Positions 1,310-23,214 of a stretch of DNA of 49,036 nucleotides are shown here, one piece after another (the stretch's first letter is position 1; every line of letters starts with the position of its first letter). Origin of the DNA: a virus (lineage: Duplodnaviria > Heunggongvirae > Uroviricota > Caudoviricetes); IMG/VR virus record IMGVR_UViG_2531839476_000015, positions 1-49,036 of that record. One strand, written 5' to 3'. The notes under the pieces were generated by a model. It was given only the letters and a program-made list of their open reading frames with translations, was not told the DNA's origin and did no database searches. Position numbers and translations under genes: made by a program.

Positions 1310-1561
1310 TCAGGCGGCTTGGTGTTCTTTCAGTTCTTCAATTCGAATATTGGTTACATTGTTTTCATATATGAATAATAAATTAGCTTTTTTCGTTGCC
1401 TTCGCGTTCTTTATTAATTTTGACAAACTCGTTTTTACCACGCTCTCCAAATGCGTCTTTAGAGTCGTTGTATCCGCAATCGCAGCACACATAATCACCA
1501 GACCATCCACGCATTGTTTTTCTTTTGCAATATTTCCAGAACCGCATTTTGGACAAGACAT
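1310..1561 (-). CDS. Hypothetical small protein with N-terminal zinc-ribbon-like CPKCGSG motif
   Basis: ORF track 1310..1594; I place the start at the internal Met (MSCPKCGSG) because a GGAG sits about 8 nt upstream; AT-rich coding sequence. Confidence 0.45.
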   Translation of the reverse strand: MSCPKCGSGNIAKEKQCVDGLVIMCAAIADTTTLKTHLESVVKTSLSKLIKNAKATKKANLLFIYENNVTNIRIEELKEHQAA

Positions 1562-1657
1562 ATCACTAACTCCAAAGCATGAGTGAGATGACAACGTAAC
1601 ATTGATTGGAGATTAACAATAGATTGCTGATGTAAAAGATATGTATAAGCTTCGCTT

Positions 1658-2545
1658 TCAAAGTGGAGGCTCTGGTAGCGGCATCCAGTGTGACGGTTTC
1701 CACGACGCACCAGGAATTATCCACCCATCATTAGCGTCAGGATGCCCCGGGATGTAAGTAGCCCATTTCATTCGCCAGTCACCTTTCCTGTCAAACTCCA
1801 CGGCAACAAGAACGGCTGTTTTGGTATTCGGCATTCGCTCACTACAGCTTATCCAACCATCCGGAGTCACCGGAACTTGTGGAATGGCTGTCTGCTCTCG
1901 AACGTCATTAGGCGCTATAGGTTCTGCTGCCAACTGACTGGCATATTTGTTAATGGTAACGATAAGCTCTTGCTCAGCCTCATCCAGACAATCACCGATA
2001 CCTCGCCTGTCACCGTCAAAATCATCGACATCGGCACGAATCTTGGCAACCTTCAGGATTGCGGACAACACCTCACTAGGAATTACCGGATAGTTGGTTG
2101 ACGTTTCCGCGATTTCCCGAAAATTATTGGTTGACGAATTCTTGTTTTCCCGAAAGTTTCCGGACTGAAGCATAGCGGCACGGCAGGCGTTCCAGCCTCT
2201 CACCTCTGCAATAGCGGCAACAGCATCAACCGCGTACATGCTAAGAGGATTAGGCATTGGTTTTTCTTCCGGTACTACTGGTGCTGGAGGGGCGGCGTAA
2301 ATGCCCTCTATCACTAAATGTTTGCGCTCAAAATCATCTGGCTCTCGATGATATACGTAACTCCAATCACCAAGGTTATCATTGCGCCTGCAACGGAAAC
2401 CTATCGGCTCGGCTTCCAGCGCTGCCAGAGCAATTCGTGCCAGTTCTTCCGCTTCTTCTGCTGGCAGTACAACGTTGCTACCAGGTCCGTATGTTTCGCG
2501 CCACTGTTTGATTGTCAGCAGTCGCCCTTTGGTAATAGTGATCAT
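1658..2545 (-). CDS. Hypothetical early-region protein with DUF551-like C-terminus (HWMPLPEPP tail)
   Basis: 295-aa ORF; C-terminal segment DGWISCSERMP...WKPSHWMPLPEPP resembles the DUF551 family common in lambdoid ea-region genes (recalled, not searched). Confidence 0.6.
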   Translation of the reverse strand: MITITKGRLLTIKQWRETYGPGSNVVLPAEEAEELARIALAALEAEPIGFRCRRNDNLGDWSYVYHREPDDFERKHLVIEGIYAAPPAPVVPEEKPMPNPLSMYAVDAVAAIAEVRGWNACRAAMLQSGNFRENKNSSTNNFREIAETSTNYPVIPSEVLSAILKVAKIRADVDDFDGDRRGIGDCLDEAEQELIVTINKYASQLAAEPIAPNDVREQTAIPQVPVTPDGWISCSERMPNTKTAVLVAVEFDRKGDWRMKWATYIPGHPDANDGWIIPGASWKPSHWMPLPEPPL

Positions 2546-3057
2546 GCCGCGTTTCCTTCTTTCTTATTAACAATTACACCGTCATATATTTCATTAAGGT
2601 GCCCTCTCAACTCCATGCGCCTTAAGGCAGACAACATGTAATCGCATTCAACCTGCTTATTCCCAATAAAAGGTTTATCCTCAGGGTTACCCCAACAGCA
2701 ATTCCCCTTGGGCCATCCATGTACTTTCCGTACTCTTCCGTTAACAACGTGAAGTAATCCCCAGCCAGGTGGTAAATCCTCAATTGAAATAGTTCCCGGC
2801 TCACTAATAAAGAATCGCCAGTCTCCCATTCCAAGAGACGGATTTTTACGAAAACGCTTTTTTCTATCTGCCAACAAGTCAGCACGAGAACATTTCGCCT
2901 CTATCAGGCATGATGCTGAATTTCTGAATCCCATAGCATCTGGCTGTTCTCCGGTACTGGTTACGGCTATAAAGCGGTCATGAAAGCAAACCTTGAACCC
3001 GTTGCGCTTAAGGAACTTGTACGCAATCTGACAGAGTTCTCGGTGTGTTAACGCCAT
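2542..3057 (-). CDS. Hypothetical protein; possible PD-(D/E)xK-like motif (D...CLIEAKC)
   Basis: ORF track 2542..3219; the upstream gene overlaps the 5' part, so I start at internal Met MALTHREL (3057) just after the upstream stop; motif assignment is weak. Confidence 0.45.
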   Translation of the reverse strand: MALTHRELCQIAYKFLKRNGFKVCFHDRFIAVTSTGEQPDAMGFRNSASCLIEAKCSRADLLADRKKRFRKNPSLGMGDWRFFISEPGTISIEDLPPGWGLLHVVNGRVRKVHGWPKGNCCWGNPEDKPFIGNKQVECDYMLSALRRMELRGHLNEIYDGVIVNKKEGNAA

Positions 3058-3058
3058 C

Positions 3059-3829
3059 TCACTCTCCTTTGATGCGAATGCCAGCGGCGCGCTTGGCTTC
3101 ACTTTGTTCCCAAAACCACTTGTGAAGCGCCATAAGCTTTTCGTCAATCGGTGCATATTTGCGATTAAAGTAGGCCTGAGCATCTTTCTCAGATTCGTCC
3201 GGTAATTCGCCAGGGCCAAACAGTGTGTTATAAATCCATGCTAGTCCGCTCTTAGCGTCGCCAGTTGCCTGCCATTCGATAATGGCAGCCTGCATGACCA
3301 GAATGTTTTTCCCGATTAATAGGTCCAGTTCTTTGTACCGGTTGCGGATGTATGCATTCTCGCTTTGTAATTTTGCGTTGCGCTTTTCTGAGGCTTCAAG
3401 TAACGCCTGCTTATCGCGTAGAGCTTCTTCCAGTTCAGCAACATGGCATTCACTATCAATAAGGTTGTTCTCTGCTGCTTCAAGCTCAACACGCAGCTTC
3501 CCAACCGTAAGCGCAATCCCCTCGTTCTCCTGGTCGCGGCGTTTGATGTATTGCTGGTTTCTTTCCCGTTCATCCAGCAGTTCCAGCACGGTAGCCGGGT
3601 TAGCCTCTGCTATGAATTCAGCGTTTGCATAAGCCTGAGCATCTGATTCAATCAGGCAGTTAACATGACATTCCGCAATCACGCCACCGGGTTCTCCTTT
3701 CCATTTTTGGCAAACAAAAACTCCTGTTAAATTGCCGTGCTGGTTAACAGATGTATGCCCTACGATGTAGCTTCCTTTAGTTGCTTTTTCTGCCTTTTCA
3801 CGCAGTGCCTGATAATTAATTTCGCTCAC
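3059..3829 (-). CDS. ea22: Ea22-like protein
   Basis: 256 aa; N-terminus MSEIN.QALRE, internal LELLDERERNQQYIKRRDQENE.IALTVGKLRVELE and C-terminus AGIRIKGE match lambda Ea22 as recalled; start codon is GTG. Confidence 0.7.
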   Translation of the reverse strand: MSEINYQALREKAEKATKGSYIVGHTSVNQHGNLTGVFVCQKWKGEPGGVIAECHVNCLIESDAQAYANAEFIAEANPATVLELLDERERNQQYIKRRDQENEGIALTVGKLRVELEAAENNLIDSECHVAELEEALRDKQALLEASEKRNAKLQSENAYIRNRYKELDLLIGKNILVMQAAIIEWQATGDAKSGLAWIYNTLFGPGELPDESEKDAQAYFNRKYAPIDEKLMALHKWFWEQSEAKRAAGIRIKGE

Positions 3830-3984
3830 TTCGAACCTCTCTGTTTACTGATAAGCTCCAGATCCTCCTGGCAACTTGCACAAGTCCGACAACCCTGAAC
3901 TGCCAGGCGTCTTCGTTCATCTATCGGATCGCCACACTCACAACAATGAGTTGCGGATACAGTCTGGTAGTTCAGGCGACGCAT
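3826..3984 (-). CDS. TraR/DksA-family C4 zinc-finger protein (52 aa)
   Basis: Not in ORF track (<60 aa); my translation MRRLNYQTVSATHCCECGDPIDERRRLAVQGCRTCASCQEDLELISKQRGSK has a CxxC...CxxC pattern with the P...RR spacing typical of TraR-like phage proteins; its stop overlaps the ea22 GTG start (GTGA). Confidence 0.5.
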   Translation of the reverse strand: MRRLNYQTVSATHCCECGDPIDERRRLAVQGCRTCASCQEDLELISKQRGSK

Positions 3985-4100
3985 TTTTATTGCTGTATTG
4001 CGCTGTAATTATTCAATTTCTGATGCTGAATCAATGATATCTGCCATCTTTCATTAATCCCTGAATTGTTGGTTAATACGCTTGAGGGTGAATGCGAATA

Positions 4101-4123
4101 ATAAAAAAGGAGCCTGTAGCTCC
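4101..4123 (-). terminator. Putative intrinsic terminator (hairpin GGAGC-tacag-GCTCC followed by T tract on minus strand)
   Basis: Inverted repeat with adjacent A run on plus strand (T run on minus); lies downstream of the 71-aa gene; coordinates approximate. Confidence 0.4.
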
Positions 4124-4145
4124 CTGATGATTTTGCTTTTCATGT

Positions 4146-4361
4146 TCACCGTTCCTTAAAGACGCCGTTTAACATACCGATTGCCAGACTTAAGTGAGTC
4201 GGTGTGAATCCCATCAGCGTTACCGTTTCGCGGTGCTTCTTCAGTACGCTACGGCAAATGTCATCGACGTTTTTATCCGGAAACTGCTGTCTGGCTTTTT
4301 TGATTTCATAATTAGCCTGACGGGCAATGCTGCGAAGGGCGTTATTATGTTCTATTGTCAT
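4146..4361 (-). CDS. Hypothetical protein (71 aa)
   Basis: ORF track 4146..4499; internal Met MTIEHNNALRS begins right after the upstream gene stop (4369); no recognisable motif. Confidence 0.4.
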   Translation of the reverse strand: MTIEHNNALRSIARQANYEIKKARQQFPDKNVDDICRSVLKKHRETVTLMGFTPTHLSLAIGMLNGVFKER

Positions 4362-4368
4362 ATTGGCC

Positions 4369-5121
4369 TCACACTTCGAATGCCAGTTGAGGGGTAAAGA
4401 CGTCCCGTTCAGCGTTGTAATTAAGTGAACTGGCACTGTTGAATGATTCAATGCGTTCCACAAGAACTTGCGTACGGGTTTCTTTACTTGCGGGAGCATA
4501 TGGCGAACCTACCCAGGATTTGTCGATGCCTATATTTCTTGCGACGTTCGTGCTGTCTGCAGACGAAAGCGGTACATGAGTAAAAATGTCTTTATTTAAC
4601 ATCCGTAACCCATGAATCTTGGTGATTGGGTAGCCGTACTGATCTACAACATGACGTATAAGATCGCGTAGTTTAGCCCGACACGCTCTCGGTCGTTTTG
4701 CATCGTATTCCCCCATCGAGCCGATGCAGACGCGGGGAAACTCATGGCACAGACGAATAAATCGCTCATCTGGTTCGTTCATGTGCCACACCGGAGCACC
4801 AATAAATTTACCGTGAGGCCATGCCGCAATCAGGGCGTCATTCTCTTCACTGGTTCCGCCGATAACATCCGGGATAACCGCGAATGAGAAACGAGGGTGA
4901 TTGCCCCAGCGTTCAACAAATCTGTAATATTCATTCCAGTCTACGGCCTTGTTTTTTGTCCAGAATGTGAATGCACCATTATCAAGAGCAAATGATTGGG
5001 TGACTTCGGAAGCCAGATCAATCTGAGCTGGATTAGCAAAACTGATGAATGCGTGTCTGCCTTTCCAGGCTTTCAACGCACAGGTATCGGGAGTTATTGG
5101 ACCACCGTGAAAATGAATCAT
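4369..5121 (-). CDS. Conserved hypothetical early-region protein (250 aa), function unassigned
   Basis: Long ORF with ordinary codon usage between exo and the ea genes; not a lambda gene at this position; I could not match a family from sequence alone. Confidence 0.6.
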   Translation of the reverse strand: MIHFHGGPITPDTCALKAWKGRHAFISFANPAQIDLASEVTQSFALDNGAFTFWTKNKAVDWNEYYRFVERWGNHPRFSFAVIPDVIGGTSEENDALIAAWPHGKFIGAPVWHMNEPDERFIRLCHEFPRVCIGSMGEYDAKRPRACRAKLRDLIRHVVDQYGYPITKIHGLRMLNKDIFTHVPLSSADSTNVARNIGIDKSWVGSPYAPASKETRTQVLVERIESFNSASSLNYNAERDVFTPQLAFEV

Positions 5122-5272
5122 ACACTCTCCCGTTTATTATTTATCTCCTCAGCCAGCCGCTGGGCTTTCAGCGGATTTCGGATAACAGAAAGGCCGGGAA
5201 ATACCCAGCCTCGCTTTGTAACGGAGTAGACGAAAGTGATCGCGCCTACCCGGATATTATCGTGAGGATGCG

Positions 5273-5953
5273 TCATCGCCATTGCTCCCCAAATACAAAA
5301 CCAATTTCAGCCAGTGCCTCGTCCATTTTTTCGATGAACTCCGGCACCATCTCGTCAAAACTCGCTATGTACTTTTCATCCCGCTCAACCACGACATAAT
5401 GCAGGCCTTCACGCTTCATACGCGGGTCATAGTTGGCAAAGTACCAGGCATCTTTTCGCGTCACCCACATGCTGTACTGCACCTGGGCCATGTAAGCCGA
5501 CTTTATGGCCTCGAAACCACCGAGCCGGAACTTCATGAAATCCCGGGAGGTAAACGGGCATTTCAGTTCAAGGCCGTTGCCGTCACTGCATAAACCATCG
5601 GGAGAGCAGGCGGTGCGCATACTTTCGTCGCGATAGATGATCGGGGATTCAGTAACATTCACGCCGGAAGTAAACTCAAACAGGGCTCTGGCGTCGTTCT
5701 CGTACTGTTTTCCCCACGCCAGTGCCTTAGCATTAACTTCCGGAGCCACACCGGTGCAAACCTCAGCCAGCAGGGTGTGGAAGTAGGACATTTTCATGTC
5801 AGGCCACTTCTTTCCTGAGCGGGGCTTTGCTATCACGTTGTGAACTTCTGAAGCGGTGATGACGCCGAGCCGTAATTTGTGCCATGCATCATCCCCCTGT
5901 TCGACAGCTCTCACGTCGATCCCGGTACGCTGCAGTATAATGTCCGGTGTCAT
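5273..5953 (-). CDS. exo: Lambda exonuclease (Red-alpha, YqaJ-like)
   Basis: 226 aa, near-identical to lambda Exo ([50 protein letters not shown]...). Confidence 0.97.
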
Positions 5954-6735
5954 GCTGCCACCTTCTGCTCAGTGGCTTTCTGTTTCAGGAATCCAAGAGC
6001 TTTCACTGCTTCGGCCTGTGTCAGTTCTGACGATGCGCGAATGTCGCGGCGAAATATCTGGGAACAGAGCGGCAATAAGTCGTCATCCCATGTTTTATCC
6101 AGGGCAATCAGCAGAGTGTTAATCTCCTGCATGGTTTCATCGTTAACCGGAGTGATGTCGCGTTCCGGCTGACGTTCTGCAGTGTATGCGGTATTTTCGA
6201 CAATGCGCTCGGCTTCATCCTTGTCATAGATACCAGCAAATCCGAAGGCGAGACGGGCACACTGAATCATGGCTTTATGCCGTAACATCCGTTTGGGATG
6301 CGACTGCCACGGCCCCGTGATTTCTCTGCCTTCGCGGGTTTTGAATGGTTCGCGGCGGCATTCATCCATCCACTCGGTAACGCAGATCGGATGATTGCGG
6401 TCTTTGCGGTAAATCCGGCATGTGCAGGATTCATTGTCCTGCTCAAAGTCCATGCCATCAAACTGCTGGTTTTCATTGATGATGCGGGACCAGCCATCAA
6501 CGCCCACCACCGGAACGATGCCGTTCTGCTTGTCAGGGAAGGCGTAAATTTCTTTCGTCCACGGATTAAGGCCGTACTGGTTGGCGACGATCAACAATGC
6601 GATGAACTGCGCATCGCTGGCATCACCTTTAAATGCCGTCTGGCGAAGAGTGGTGATCAGTTCCTGTGGGTCGACAGAATCCATGCCGACACGTTCAGCC
6701 AGCTTCCCTGCCAGCGTTGCGAGTGCTGTACTCAT
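5950..6735 (-). CDS. bet: Red-beta single-strand annealing protein
   Basis: 261 aa, near-identical to lambda Beta ([59 protein letters not shown]...). Confidence 0.97.
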
Positions 6736-6740
6736 CCGTT

Positions 6741-7157
6741 TTATACCTCTGAATCAATATCAACCTGGTGGTGAGCAATGGTTTCAACCATGTACCGGAT
6801 GTGTTCTGCCATGCGCTCCTGAAACTCAACATCGTCATCAAACGCACGGGTAATGGCTTTTTTGCTGGCCCCGTGGCGTTGCAAATGATCGATGCATAGC
6901 GATTCAAACAGGTGCTGGGGCAGGCCTTTTTCCATGTCGTCTGCCAGTTCTGCCTCTTTCTCTTCACGGGCGATCTGCTGGTAGTGACGCGCCCAGCTCT
7001 GAGCCTCAAGACGATCCTGAATGTAATAAGCGTTCATGGCTGAACTCCTGAAATAGTTGTGAAAATATCGCCCGCTAAATGCCGGGCTGATTAGGAAAAC
7101 AGGAAAGGGGGTTAGTGAATGCTTTTGCTTGATCTCAGTTTCAGCATTAATATCCAT
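6741..7157 (-). CDS. gam: Gam, RecBCD inhibitor
   Basis: ORF track 6741..7202; start placed at [27 protein letters not shown]... giving 138 aa as in lambda Gam. Confidence 0.92.
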
Positions 7158-7254
7158 TTTTATAAGCGTCGACGGCTTCACGAAACATCTTTTCATCGCC
7201 AATAAAAGTGGCGATAGTGAATTTAGTCTGGATAGCCATAAGTGTTTGATCCAT
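7147..7254 (-). CDS. kil: Kil (host killing / FtsZ inhibitor), apparently shorter than lambda Kil
   Basis: Internal Met [32 protein letters not shown] matches lambda Kil N-terminus; C-terminus differs and overlaps gam start. Confidence 0.6.
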
Positions 7255-7387
7255 TCTTTGGGACTCCTGGCTGATTAAGTATGTCGATAAGGCGTTTCCA
7301 TCCGTCACGTAATTTACGGGTGATTCGTTCAAGTAAAGATTCGGAAGGGCAGCCAGCAACAGGCCACCCTGCAATGGCATATTGCAT
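7223..7387 (-). CDS. cIII: cIII, FtsH protease inhibitor
   Basis: 54 aa [54 protein letters not shown], lambda cIII. Confidence 0.9.
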
Positions 7388-7459
7388 GGTGTGCTCCTTA
7401 TTTATACATAACGAAAAACGCCTCGAGTGAAGCGTTATTGGTATGCGGTAAAACCGCAC

Positions 7460-7828
7460 TCAGACGGCCTTGATAGTCATATCATCTGAATCAAATATTC
7501 CTGATGTATCGATATCGGTAATTCTTATTCCTTCGCTACCATCCATTGGAGGCCATCCTTCCTGACCATTTCCATCATTCCAGTCGAACTCACACACAAC
7601 ACCATATGCATTTAAGTCGCTTGAAATTGCGATAAGCAGAGCATGTTGCGCCAGCATGATTAATACAGCATTTAATACAGAGCCGTGTTTATTGAGTCGG
7701 TATTCAGAGTCTGACCAGAAATTATTAATCTGGTGAAGTTTTTCCTCTGTCATTACGTCATGGTCGATTTCAATTTCTATTGATGCTTTCCAGTCGTAAT
7801 CAATGATGTATTTTTTGATGTTTGACAT
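7460..7828 (-). CDS. ea10: Ea10-like protein
   Basis: 122 aa acidic protein at the lambda ea10 position, immediately upstream (in transcription order) of cIII. Confidence 0.7.
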   Translation of the reverse strand: MSNIKKYIIDYDWKASIEIEIDHDVMTEEKLHQINNFWSDSEYRLNKHGSVLNAVLIMLAQHALLIAISSDLNAYGVVCEFDWNDGNGQEGWPPMDGSEGIRITDIDTSGIFDSDDMTIKAV

Positions 7829-7856
7829 CTATTCATATCCTCATAGATAAAAAATC

Positions 7857-7874
7857 GCCCTCACACTGGAGGGC
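7857..7874 (-). terminator. Hairpin GCCCTC-n6-GAGGGC plus T tract just upstream of ea10 (tL-like, N-antiterminated)
   Basis: Inverted repeat with T run on the minus strand; coordinates approximate. Confidence 0.4.
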
Positions 7875-8016
7875 AAAGAAGATTTCCAATAATCAGAACA
7901 AGTCGACTCCTGTTTAGTTACGAGTGACATTGCTCCGTGTATTCACTCGTTGAAATGAATACACAGTGCAGTGTTTATTCTGTTGTTTGCGTGAAAATGA
8001 AACCCGCCTGAGCGGG

Positions 8017-8745
8017 TTATGACCACTTTTTGTTTGGATTTCGTTGGTGAGCGTGGTTTACAGGATTATTTGATATACCCCATAACTCTGACTCGCTTAT
8101 CTCTACACGAGAGAAAGACCTGCTTTCTTTCAGTTCTTTTATAAACCTAGAACCTACGATGACATCTATTGTCCCAGAAAGTTCTTGTAAAAGATCTTTG
8201 TTTTTTCTGAGGAAGAAAACATCTTCTTTATATTTAATTTTTACATAGAATTTATTCTGTATTTTTAATATATCAAAGCATGGCAGATATCTATATCCCT
8301 CATGCTTTCGCCACTGCTTAACAATTATAACATCTCTTTCATTTACTGCATTAATCAGCCCAAGACCAAGTATAGGTATGAATATTCTATTGTCTGCCGA
8401 AAGCGTACAATTATCACCACCAGGCAAATATGTATAAATCATGTCGGAATTTTTATACGCATCAACGAATGCACGTAAGAATCGTACATATTTTTGCCAT
8501 CCGTTTATACCAAATTTACCATATAAGTATTCTTTATTTGTTAGAAGAAAACTATTTGTATCAGGAGCCTTATCTACAGACCTGTCGATAAGATCTCCAA
8601 CTACGTTTACAAAGTCAAAGACAGAGTTTAATAAGAACAATTGTCTTTCAGTCGGGCGAATTTCAATTATGTAGCCTGGATGAAGACGATATTGCATCTG
8701 CTTACGAAGTATACTGAACGCTTGGGTCCGGGCATCTGAAAGCAA
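8017..8745 (-). CDS. Hypothetical protein in AT-rich insert at the ral/sieB slot; candidate exclusion/defence gene, no family assigned
   Basis: 242-aa ORF from a TTG start (226 aa if ATG at 8697, MQYRLHPGYIIEIRP); DNA is markedly AT-rich versus flanking lambda genes; hairpins at both ends; no Walker A or other motif I can name. Confidence 0.7.
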   Translation of the reverse strand: MLSDARTQAFSILRKQMQYRLHPGYIIEIRPTERQLFLLNSVFDFVNVVGDLIDRSVDKAPDTNSFLLTNKEYLYGKFGINGWQKYVRFLRAFVDAYKNSDMIYTYLPGGDNCTLSADNRIFIPILGLGLINAVNERDVIIVKQWRKHEGYRYLPCFDILKIQNKFYVKIKYKEDVFFLRKNKDLLQELSGTIDVIVGSRFIKELKESRSFSRVEISESELWGISNNPVNHAHQRNPNKKWS

Positions 8746-8893
8746 CTTCCTGTCGCCATCGCCGTGAGCATTGTTTCTAATAAAACTGATATAATTTGCT
8801 AATTTTTCAGCCTCTTTTTTGTGTTTTTTCGTTCTGATGCTGAGTCTATTGGTTTTGGTATGGACTTGTAATCAATTTTCTTCATTACGTACC

Positions 8894-21360: not shown

Positions 21361-23214
21361 ATGACATTTAAACATTATGATGTTGTCAGGGCGGCGTCGC
21401 CGTCAGACCTTGCGGAAAAGCTGACACACAAACTGAAAGAGGGCTGGCAGCCGTTTGGTAGTCCGGTGGCCATAACCCCTTATACCCTGATGCAGGCGAT
21501 TACAGCAGAAGGTGATGTGGTGGTCAGTGGTGCAACTGAGCCGGATTGGTACTACGTCATCGTACTGGCCGGGCAGTCCAATGCCATGGCTTACGGTGAA
21601 GGGCTTCCGCTGCCGGATTCATACGATGCTCCGGATCCGCGCATTAAACAGCTGGCGCGCCGCAGTACAGTTACGCCGGGTGGGGCTGCCTGCAGATATA
21701 ACGATATTATTCCGGCCGACCACTGCCTGCATGATGTGCAGGATATGAGTGCGCTGAATCATCCGAAGGCAGACCTGAGCAAAGGGCAGTACGGCTGTGT
21801 CGGCCAGGGCTTACATATTGCCAAAAAACTGCTCCCGTATATCCCGAATAACGCGGGGATCCTGCTGGTACCATGCTGTCGTGGTGGTTCTGCATTCACC
21901 CAGGGCGCTGAGGGGACATTCAGTGCGGACACGGGGGCCAGCCAGGATTCGGCACGCTGGGGTGTGGGTAAACCGTTATATCAGGACCTGATTGCGCGCA
22001 CTAAAGCTGCATTACAGAAGAACCCGAAAAATGTGTTGCTGGCGGTGTGCTGGATGCAGGGAGAGTTTGACATGAGCGCCGCCACCCACGCACAGCAACC
22101 TGCGCTGTTTACAGCCATGCTGACACGGTTTCGTGCTGACCTCTCCGTGTTTAACGCGCAGTGCCATGGTGGCAGTGCTGCAGATGTGCCGTGGATTTGT
22201 GGTGACACGACGTATTACTGGAAAAATACATACGCTACCCAGTACGACACCGTGTACGGCGGGTATAAAAACAGGGAGAGTGAGGGCGTTTATTTTGTGC
22301 CCTTCATGACAGACGGTAACGGCGTCAATACCGCCACTAACGCGCCGGCAGAAGATCCGGATATTCCGGCATCAGGATATTACGGTGCGGCATCGAGAAC
22401 GAATGGAAACCAGGTATCATCAAACCGCCCGACACATTTCAGTTCATGGGCGCGCAGGAGCATTATTCCGGATCGTCTGGCAACCGCTATTCTGAACGCA
22501 GCCGGGCGCACCTCCGCCTTCATCAGTGGTAAGGCACCGGAAATCAAACCCTCGCCCGGCGGCAACACGCCATCGGGTCCGTCTGCAGATACGTCCGTTC
22601 GCACAATCTCCCTGCTGCCGGCAGCCGGAGAGGCTGCTGCGCAGGGCTGGAGCATTAAGGATGGCGGAATTCAGTTGTCAGATGGTGTATTTAAGATCAC
22701 CAAGCAGAGCAATAAAACCTGGTCCCTGACGCATCCGGTGGATGACGCAATTACCCTGCTGACACAGGGCGGCAGACTGAACTGTAAGTTCCGCCTGTCA
22801 GGCGCACTGACCAACAATCAGTTCGGGCTGGGGATTTATCTGTATACGGATGCTCCCGTTCCTGATGGTGTGGCGATGACGGGTACCGGTAATCCGTTCC
22901 TGATGTCGTACTTCACTCAGACCACTGACGGCAGAGTGAATCTGATGCATCACAGGAAAGCCGGAAACACGAAGCTGGGGGAGTTCGGCGATTACGGTAA
23001 CGACTGGCAGACGCTGGAGCTGGTGTTCACCGCCGGCAGTGCCACGGTTACTCCGAAACTGAATGGAGTGGCTGGCCCGGCATTCCAGGTTATAAAAGAC
23101 AGTCTGACACTGGGACTGAATGCGCTGACGCTGACGGATGTTACAAAAAATGCAGCGTATGGCGTTGAGATAGAAAGTCTGGTGCTGGAGATAAATGCAC
23201 CGGCATCATCATAA
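21361..23214 (+). CDS. nanS-p: NanS-p-like sialate O-acetylesterase (SGNH/GQSN hydrolase with C-terminal extension)
   Basis: 617 aa; [18 protein letters not shown] block typical of the 9-O-acetyl sialic acid esterases found in Stx prophage late regions. Confidence 0.8.

Follow-up and report, generated by a model that had tools for sequence, protein, structure and literature searches.

A predicted stand-alone DpdA-type gene in the mosaic exo-xis segment of a lambda-like E. coli prophage

We have analyzed the viral DNA of IMG/VR record IMGVR_UViG_2531839476_000015, positions 1 to 49,036 (hereafter the window, meaning this whole stretch of 49,036 nucleotides, nt), focusing on the interval between exo and xis, where a gene for a 250-amino acid (aa) protein very probably encodes a stand-alone homologue of the phage protein DpdA, a family of enzymes exchanging the guanine of DNA for 7-deazaguanine bases. 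Within the leftward early (pL) operon of this lambda-like E. coli prophage, which is related to Shiga toxin (Stx) phages, the interval forms the exo-xis segment. Blocks of this type are already known, and this one is an ordinary mosaic of swappable small-gene cassettes that forms no single functional system; apart from the stand-alone DpdA gene, the region is mostly ordinary. The open reading frames (ORFs) and other features of the segment are the following:

1658-2545, minus strand: 295-aa protein with a C-terminal DUF551 domain at residues 230-294 (PF04448, 6.1e-21)
2542-3057, minus strand: 171-aa protein with a predicted PD-(D/E)xK (Hjc-like) nuclease fold (motif D40...E53-A54-K55)
3059-3829, minus strand: Ea22-like protein of 256 aa, with a lambda-type N-terminus and a common alternative C-terminal module (PF13935, 4.6e-36, residues 2-141)
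3826-3984, minus strand: residual 52-aa DksA/TraR zinc-finger ORF, starting at Met22 (PF01258, 8.6e-10)
3826-4047, minus strand: lambda orf73 (TraR homologue), with a TAA at codon 13, 4009-4011 (sequence reading and DNA alignment)
4054-4143, minus strand: small 29-aa ORF between orf61 and orf73, with a terminator-like hairpin at 4125-4107 (sequence reading)
4146-4361, minus strand: orf61-type gene of 71 aa, an un-frameshifted form of lambda orf61 (phrog_303, 3.9e-34)
4344-5118, no strand: 775-nt cassette in place of the 283-nt orf63 module that lambda and Stx2 phage 1717 carry (breakpoints from blastn comparison with lambda, Stx2-1717, PhiR5_1 and SfI)
4369-5121, minus strand: dpdA-type gene for the 250-aa stand-alone phage DpdA homologue, a predicted DNA guanine/7-deazaguanine transglycosylase (phrog_887, 4e-99)
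5118-5282, minus strand: retained orf60a homologue, DUF1317 (PF07026, 2.5e-33; match to lambda orf60a over the first 51 residues)
5273-5953, minus strand: exo (lambda exonuclease), the upstream neighbour in the pL operon (PF09588, 3.3e-30)

The 250-aa protein is conserved, as a sequence-only reading of this DNA had noted, with 6182 homologues at E<=1e-3. The same reading had considered a tRNA-guanine transglycosylase (TGT) or DpdA-like identity for this protein and could not support it; we find it to be the best supported identity, through a PHROG match, identity to a catalogued phage protein, profile-profile alignment and comparison with viral structure models. The matched cluster, PHROG 887, is named 'queuine tRNA-ribosyltransferase' and is also hit by the DpdA proteins of phages CAjan (8e-96) and 7-11 (7e-74). 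Deletion of dpdA in CAjan abolishes dPreQ0 (Hutinet et al. 2019). Regarding the catalogued protein, the 250-aa sequence is 100% identical to gp34 of Shigella phage SfI (SfI_0034, YP_009147480), which carries the RefSeq name queuine tRNA-ribosyltransferase. Supplementary Data 1 of Hutinet et al. (2019) gives YP_009147480 as the DpdA of SfI and lists this phage alongside HK106, SPN3UB, BTP1, SEN1, SE131, PEAT2 and 7-11. The third group of that study comprises 76 phages with DpdA only (‘singleton’), devoid of G+ or preQ0 biosynthesis proteins, and the annotation of each identified ortholog was checked there with HHpred. The protein is thus already catalogued in the literature as a DpdA under an identical sequence.

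A hidden Markov model (HMM) search of 1.84 billion representatives gave 1748 clusters related to the 250-aa protein at E<=1e-3, and 85 of the relatives, sharing 29-51% identity with the query, were used to build a diverse alignment. When this alignment was compared with CAjan DpdA by hhalign, the match had a probability of 98.8% and an E-value of 4e-17 over 173 columns. Direct BLASTP against CAjan DpdA gave the same register with 21% identity (E 2e-4), and tblastn against 7-11 DpdA gave 36% identity (E 1e-27). According to these results, we consider membership of the phage DpdA family to be highly probable.

Residues D47, D189 and S190 are invariant in the 85-relative alignment, and D85, H113, G134 and H170 are conserved in at least 90% of the sequences. 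In the BLASTP alignment, D47, D85, H113, G134, H170 and D189 fall on the CAjan motifs LDSGAF, VLDGIG, CFHFGE, IGGM, KLHAF and YSCDSS. Bacterial DpdA uses D95 as general acid/base, F99, D130 and H181 for base recognition, G206/G207, and D256 as nucleophile, and the D95A and D256A substitutions abolish guanine exchange (PMC10164549). Judging by spacing, D47, F51, D85, H113, G134-G137 and D189 would correspond to D95/F99/D130/H181/G206-G207/D256 of the bacterial enzyme. The AlphaFold2 (AF2) model (predicted local distance difference test, pLDDT, 83.9; predicted template-modelling score, pTM, 0.84) is an eight-stranded beta/alpha barrel in which strands alternate with helices and the conserved residues lie at or just past the C-terminal ends of successive strands, so the protein is modelled as a minimal (beta/alpha)8 barrel. 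The sequence-only reading had proposed profile and Foldseek searches for this protein. Besides the hhalign result, Foldseek against the viral models of BFVD returned 29 matches at E<=1e-3, among which the named ones are phage queuine tRNA-ribosyltransferases, except for the weakest. They include a protein of Mycobacterium phage Bella96, a member of the Hutinet list.

The start of dpdA overlaps the stop of orf60a (ATGA), and the gene is co-directional with exo, bet and gam; from what is known of lambda, it should be expressed early from pL. A tblastn search with the CAjan proteins found no FolE, QueD, QueC, QueE or preQ0 transporter in the window. We also gathered 80 related viral loci by means of the alignment of close relatives of the 250-aa protein, and the same search found none of these CAjan proteins within 8 kb of dpdA in them. 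The dpdA of the window is hence a true singleton of the ‘DpdA only’ group, inside the family. Screening of 5426 complete E. coli genomes detected the gene in 100 of them, always on the chromosome and with at least 99% nucleotide identity. Among the relatives, P0373 combines QueD (PTPS, 1.2e-24) with a DpdA-like domain and P0357 combines a D12-class (Dam-class) DNA adenine methyltransferase with a DpdA-like domain. Both are candidate fusions that may be gene-calling artefacts; if genuine, they would suggest a tie to the 7-deazaguanine pathway and a DNA substrate.

The sequence-only reading had described the interval as non-lambda cargo replacing orf60a, orf61 and orf63. This holds for orf63, while orf60a and orf61 are both present. 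Compared by blastn with lambda and Stx2 phage 1717, the segment shows 94-99% identity on either flank of a single break at 4344-5118, where those two phages carry the 283-nt orf63/DUF1382 module, and tblastn over the whole window detected no homologue of lambda orf63 or ea8.5. Downstream, the position of lambda ea8.5 is taken by the 171-aa protein and the DUF551 protein. As for the rest of the supposed cargo, lambda orf73 accounts for the zinc-finger ORF and lambda ea22 for the N-terminus of the Ea22-like protein, so neither is non-lambda. Of the three genes named in that reading, orf63 alone is replaced, by the 775-nt cassette with the gene for the 250-aa protein. On the exo side, the DNA of the window at 5119-7300, including exo, is 97.6% identical to lambda by blastn. 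In the 71-aa orf61-type protein, residues 7-22 reproduce the C-terminus of lambda orf61 but for one position, and residues 23-71 correspond to the next lambda ORF; PhiR5_1 annotates this gene as orf61. In the place of the 29-aa small ORF, SfI annotates a 90-nt ORF. The hairpin at 4125-4107 resembles a terminator, with a GC stem and, after it, a T-run on the pL operon's coding strand. The closest phage records to the window are Stx1a- and Stx2-converting phages, and no Stx A-subunit motif was found in any frame of the window.

A TraR/DksA-type zinc finger at 3826-3984 had been recognized before from the letters alone, and the Pfam match confirms it; the TIGR02419 match of the same ORF (8.6e-11) is below the cutoff of the model. 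This ORF is what is left of an interrupted lambda orf73. On the minus strand from position 4047, the gene reads ATG GCA GAT ATC ATT GAT TCA GCA TCA GAA ATT GAA TAA, that is, MADIIDSASEIE followed by a stop: codon 13, E13 (GAA) in lambda, is TAA in the window. When the DNA was aligned with that of lambda, PhiR5_1, Stx2-1717 and a prophage of E. coli, the G-to-T change at 4011 was present only in the window. The DxxDxA codons are still there in the orf73 DNA, but the TAA cuts them off from the zinc finger; the 52-aa ORF lacks the motif and has no obvious Shine-Dalgarno sequence. In TraR, the DxxDxA motif is critical and lies in the N-terminal helix that reaches the active site of RNA polymerase, and D3 and D6 are needed by lambda Orf73 (PMC9239242). 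The lambda protein is an inhibitor of rRNA promoters and increases the yield of phage 3- to 4-fold; in vitro, its D3N or D6N variants have a much weaker effect, and phage yield drops with D3A/D6A (PMC9239242). The earlier suggestion that the TraR-like protein could modulate host RNA polymerase is thus weakened by the nonsense codon and by the absence of DxxDxA from the remnant. Because the remnant lacks this motif, such a role seems unlikely for the orf73 copy of the window, unless the stop is a sequencing error.

The assignment of the gene at 3059-3829 to an Ea22-like protein was borne out by its PF13935 match, and blastn against lambda confines the Ea22 similarity to the N-terminal parts. 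Residues 145-244 are matched at 1.3e-36 by the PADLOC model PDLC02890, labelled ‘DpdH’. We rejected this match as evidence of a system: when the C-terminal module was searched, its 120 best homologues proved to be prophage proteins of the Ea22-like type, by the name of their source or by Pfam domain, none of them is named DpdH, and an NCBIfam scan of the Ea22-like protein gave no DpdH assignment. The PADLOC model is probably mislabelled or contaminated.

For the 171-aa protein, a PD-(D/E)xK-like D...EAK motif had been proposed, and our analysis supports it at the level of fold and motif. The protein has 307 homologues, all of them unnamed, and Pfam and NCBIfam scans of it gave nothing. Among its relatives, D40 and E53 are invariant and K55 is conserved in at least 90%. 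Its AF2 model (pLDDT 90.5) has the order alpha-beta-beta-beta-alpha-beta (helix 5-18, strands 23-26, 41-45 and 48-54, helix 58-65, strand 80-85), D40 lying where beta2 begins and E53-x-K55 where beta3 ends. The recognizable proteins among the 50 best Foldseek matches in PDB are PD-(D/E)xK nucleases (R2 endonuclease domain, AF1548, Hjc, HincII, Bax1, NucS and Can2), at E>=0.012. Sub-threshold matches to Pfam Hjc were found in 25 of 65 relatives (best 0.008), and the family profile weakly matches PDB entry 3dnx (SPO1766; E 0.23) through D..G....IE.K.SR.DF.AD. The protein is probably a structure-specific DNA endonuclease.

The DUF551-like protein that completed the earlier description belongs to that family, but it lies outside the interval to which it had been assigned (2542-5121) save for a 4-nt overlap. 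Between xis and the DUF551 gene we observed a 94-aa ORF (1310-1594, minus strand; phrog_2945) with a CxxC...CxxC-like N-terminus and a weak match to the Lar restriction-alleviation family (PF14354, E 0.039). A Dam-type DNA N6-adenine methyltransferase (PF05869, 8e-65; 15821-16348, plus strand) is encoded in the nin region beside NinB, as a second DNA-modification gene of the window. Between the gam/kil/cIII region and N, a low-GC island at 7400-8800 (32-40%, in surroundings of about 48-53%) resembles a moron-type insertion; it contains an ORF of 226-242 aa at 8017-8745 (minus strand), with no Pfam or PADLOC match, and a DUF2528 ORF at 7460-7828 (minus strand). The window also encodes a NanS-p-like esterase (DUF1737, SASA and DUF6645; 21361-23214, plus strand).

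Taken as a whole, the segment is best explained, with moderate confidence on our part, as a mosaic exo-xis region with a singleton DpdA that would use a host-made base for DNA modification. In this scheme, dpdA would be expressed early, together with exo, bet and gam, after induction or infection. Judging by the homologous CAjan DpdA, bacterial DpdA and TGT, the nucleophile displacing guanine from DNA through a covalent enzyme-DNA intermediate would be D189, with D47 as the general acid/base. A 7-deazaguanine base would then be inserted into replicating phage DNA by the double-displacement chemistry of TGT and DpdA. This base, which could be preQ0 or a derivative like preQ1, would have to be drawn from the queuosine pathway of the host, because the phage lacks folE, queD, queE and queC; preQ0 is made by E. 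coli hosts. Progeny DNA modified in this way would gain partial protection from restriction in the next host. What we show here is the family membership, the fold class, the conserved residues, the absence of biosynthesis genes and the operon position; the roles of the residues, the substrate, and whether and how far the DNA is modified are what we infer. That the singleton DpdA carries out a real and useful DNA modification has, in our judgement, about an even chance, and a bolder claim, that it represents a one-gene anti-restriction hypermodification feeding on the host preQ0/preQ1 pool in a lambda-type coliphage, or a new substrate or base specificity of the singleton clade, is tentative.

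One could argue that the 250-aa protein is an unrelated TIM-barrel enzyme to which the DpdA label was carried over from a loose PHROG cluster. In its favour are the generic barrels that Foldseek found in PDB and the lack of a Pfam TGT match. Further results count against the DpdA reading: the protein has no Pfam match at E<=0.1 and no NCBIfam match; its phmmer search of PDB sequences, like the searches with profiles of the close and diverse alignments, returned only noise; hhalign of the diverse alignment against a single E. coli TGT sequence was not significant; and PGAP labels the gene hypothetical. The PDB entries matched by Foldseek are TIM barrels of a generic kind (TrpA, pyruvate kinase and PdxJ; E>=1e-3, template-modelling (TM) scores of about 0.5), and the absence of any TGT or DpdA among the 50 best matches is a real weakness. 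The sequence, in which only 61 residues follow D189, also lacks two features of bacterial DpdA, the CxCxxC...H zinc site and the large insertion Ins8. The Pfam TGT model PF01702 was matched neither by the protein nor by any of its 85 diverse relatives; E. coli TGT scores 2.8e-168. The missing Pfam and PDB matches are weak counter-evidence, because the validated CAjan DpdA likewise finds no Pfam TGT or PDB sequence match. As CAjan DpdA lacks CxCxxC as well, these absences set phage DpdAs apart from bacterial DpdA and TGT, and not the 250-aa protein apart from phage DpdAs. The significant profile-profile and pairwise alignments with CAjan DpdA, with motifs in register, the mainly DpdA-type phage proteins among the viral-model Foldseek matches and the candidate QueD fusion leave the unrelated barrel as the least credible of the alternatives. 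Hardly more credible is the proposal that the cargo is one DNA-modification/anti-restriction island composed of DpdA, the Ea22-like protein (through its DpdH match) and the PD-(D/E)xK protein. It would account for the PDLC02890 match and for genes that are co-directional and tightly packed, but the 171-aa gene is found in none of the 80 other dpdA loci and a window-type Ea22 in at most 6 of them. Moreover, Stx phages have the Ea22 and 171-aa genes with orf63 and without dpdA, SfI has dpdA without both, and for the ‘DpdH-like’ module, as described above, the 120 best homologues are ordinary prophage proteins of the Ea22-like type. Since these modules do not co-occur, the cargo is not one system; the orf73 remnant, the Ea22 variant and the 171-aa and DUF551 proteins are modules independent of dpdA.

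A more serious alternative, although still unlikely, is that the gamma-proteobacterial clade of singleton DpdAs has diverged, keeping the barrel and the acidic residues without usefully hypermodifying phage DNA. Its target might be position 34 of host tRNA or host DNA, and it might remove rather than insert a base, or use a different one. Part of the literature speaks for this and against modification by the singleton DpdA. In the DNA of phage 7-11, the sole tested member of the SfI-type clade, 2'-deoxy-7-amido-7-deazaguanosine (dADG) amounts to 0.02% of G, and the DNA of the singleton-DpdA phage Orion is unmodified (Hutinet et al. 2019). In the sequence-similarity analysis of the same authors, singleton DpdAs fell into clusters of their own, and functional divergence was raised as a possibility. 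The distance to CAjan DpdA, with 21% identity and 250 aa against 306 aa, goes in the same direction. Against divergence, the putative catalytic and base-recognition residues are all kept in more than 80 diverse relatives, the candidate fusions with QueD and a DNA methyltransferase would point to the 7-deazaguanine pathway and a DNA substrate, and preQ0 is made by the E. coli hosts. On DpdA-only phages, Hutinet et al. (2019) state that they "could rely on preQ0 synthesized by the host" and that their modification status "is difficult to predict", and report that their hosts mostly encode the full Q pathway. We retain, at the strength given above, the reading of a singleton DpdA that would modify DNA with a host-made base.

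Should the stand-alone DpdA be active, virions with host-derived 7-deazaguanine would be released from about 2% of the complete E. coli genomes, as well as from many prophages of Salmonella, Klebsiella, Serratia, Yersinia and Vibrio, with consequences for restriction, CRISPR, glycosylase-based defences and the sequencing of such phages. Because dpdA sits here in a lambda-like phage, standard lambda genetics could answer the question posed in 2019 of whether phages with DpdA only modify their DNA, and which base they use.

Comparing the segment with known systems, the exo-xis region found in lambda and Stx phages, studied by the Wegrzyn and Donaldson laboratories (the orf60a-orf63-orf61-orf73-ea22 block) has the same position and strand, and the orf60a, orf61, orf73 and ea22 N-terminus sequences share 94-98% DNA identity with lambda or Stx2-1717. 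The window differs in having dpdA for orf63, a nonsense codon in orf73, and the 171-aa and DUF551 genes downstream in place of ea8.5. With respect to lambda Orf73 and F-plasmid TraR, the 222-nt gene is co-linear with lambda orf73 and conserves the C4 zinc finger and the C-terminus; it differs in the TAA at codon 13, which leaves a 52-aa ORF without D3, D6 and A8, D3 and D6 being required for inhibition of rrnB P1 and for the effect on phage yield. The 171-aa protein shares with Hjc/AHJR-like PD-(D/E)xK nucleases and with 3dnx the D40...E53-x-K55 arrangement on beta2/beta3 of an alpha-beta-beta-beta-alpha-beta core, while it has about 60 extra C-terminal residues, and its matches to these proteins are all below usual significance.

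Regarding the DpdA-type protein itself, it shares with the bacterial DpdA of the S. Montevideo Dpd system and with TGT (PF01702) the (beta/alpha)8 barrel and, as deduced from spacing, an Asp/Asp/His/Asp set comparable to D95, D130, H181 and D256, whereas the Pfam TGT match, the zinc site, Ins8 and a gene for the DpdB ATPase partner are missing here. The validated dPreQ0/dG+ DNA transglycosylase DpdA1 of CAjan/9g is closer: it falls in PHROG 887, is matched by hhalign at 98.8% and has the same motifs, LD(N/S)GAF, (P/L)D, xxH, IG(S/G)M, (I/L)H and (A/C)DS, both proteins being devoid of the CxCxxC zinc motif. Two different DNA motifs are used by CAjan DpdA. It differs in length (306 aa against 250 aa here), the identity is just 21%, and the CAjan gene is clustered with folE, queD, queC, queE and a preQ0 transporter, whereas here dpdA stands alone in the pL operon of a temperate phage. 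Finally, the closest counterparts are the singleton DpdAs of SfI (gp34), HK106, SPN3UB, BTP1 and 7-11 (gp032), with identities of 100% for SfI, 67% for BTP1 and SPN3UB, and 36% for 7-11. Like the other phages of group 3 of Hutinet et al. (2019), the phage of the window has no preQ0 genes, and its dpdA adjoins orf60a and exo, as in SfI and PhiR5_1. Nothing substantial separates it from this group but the surrounding cassettes, which here are the Ea22 variant and the 171-aa and DUF551 proteins.

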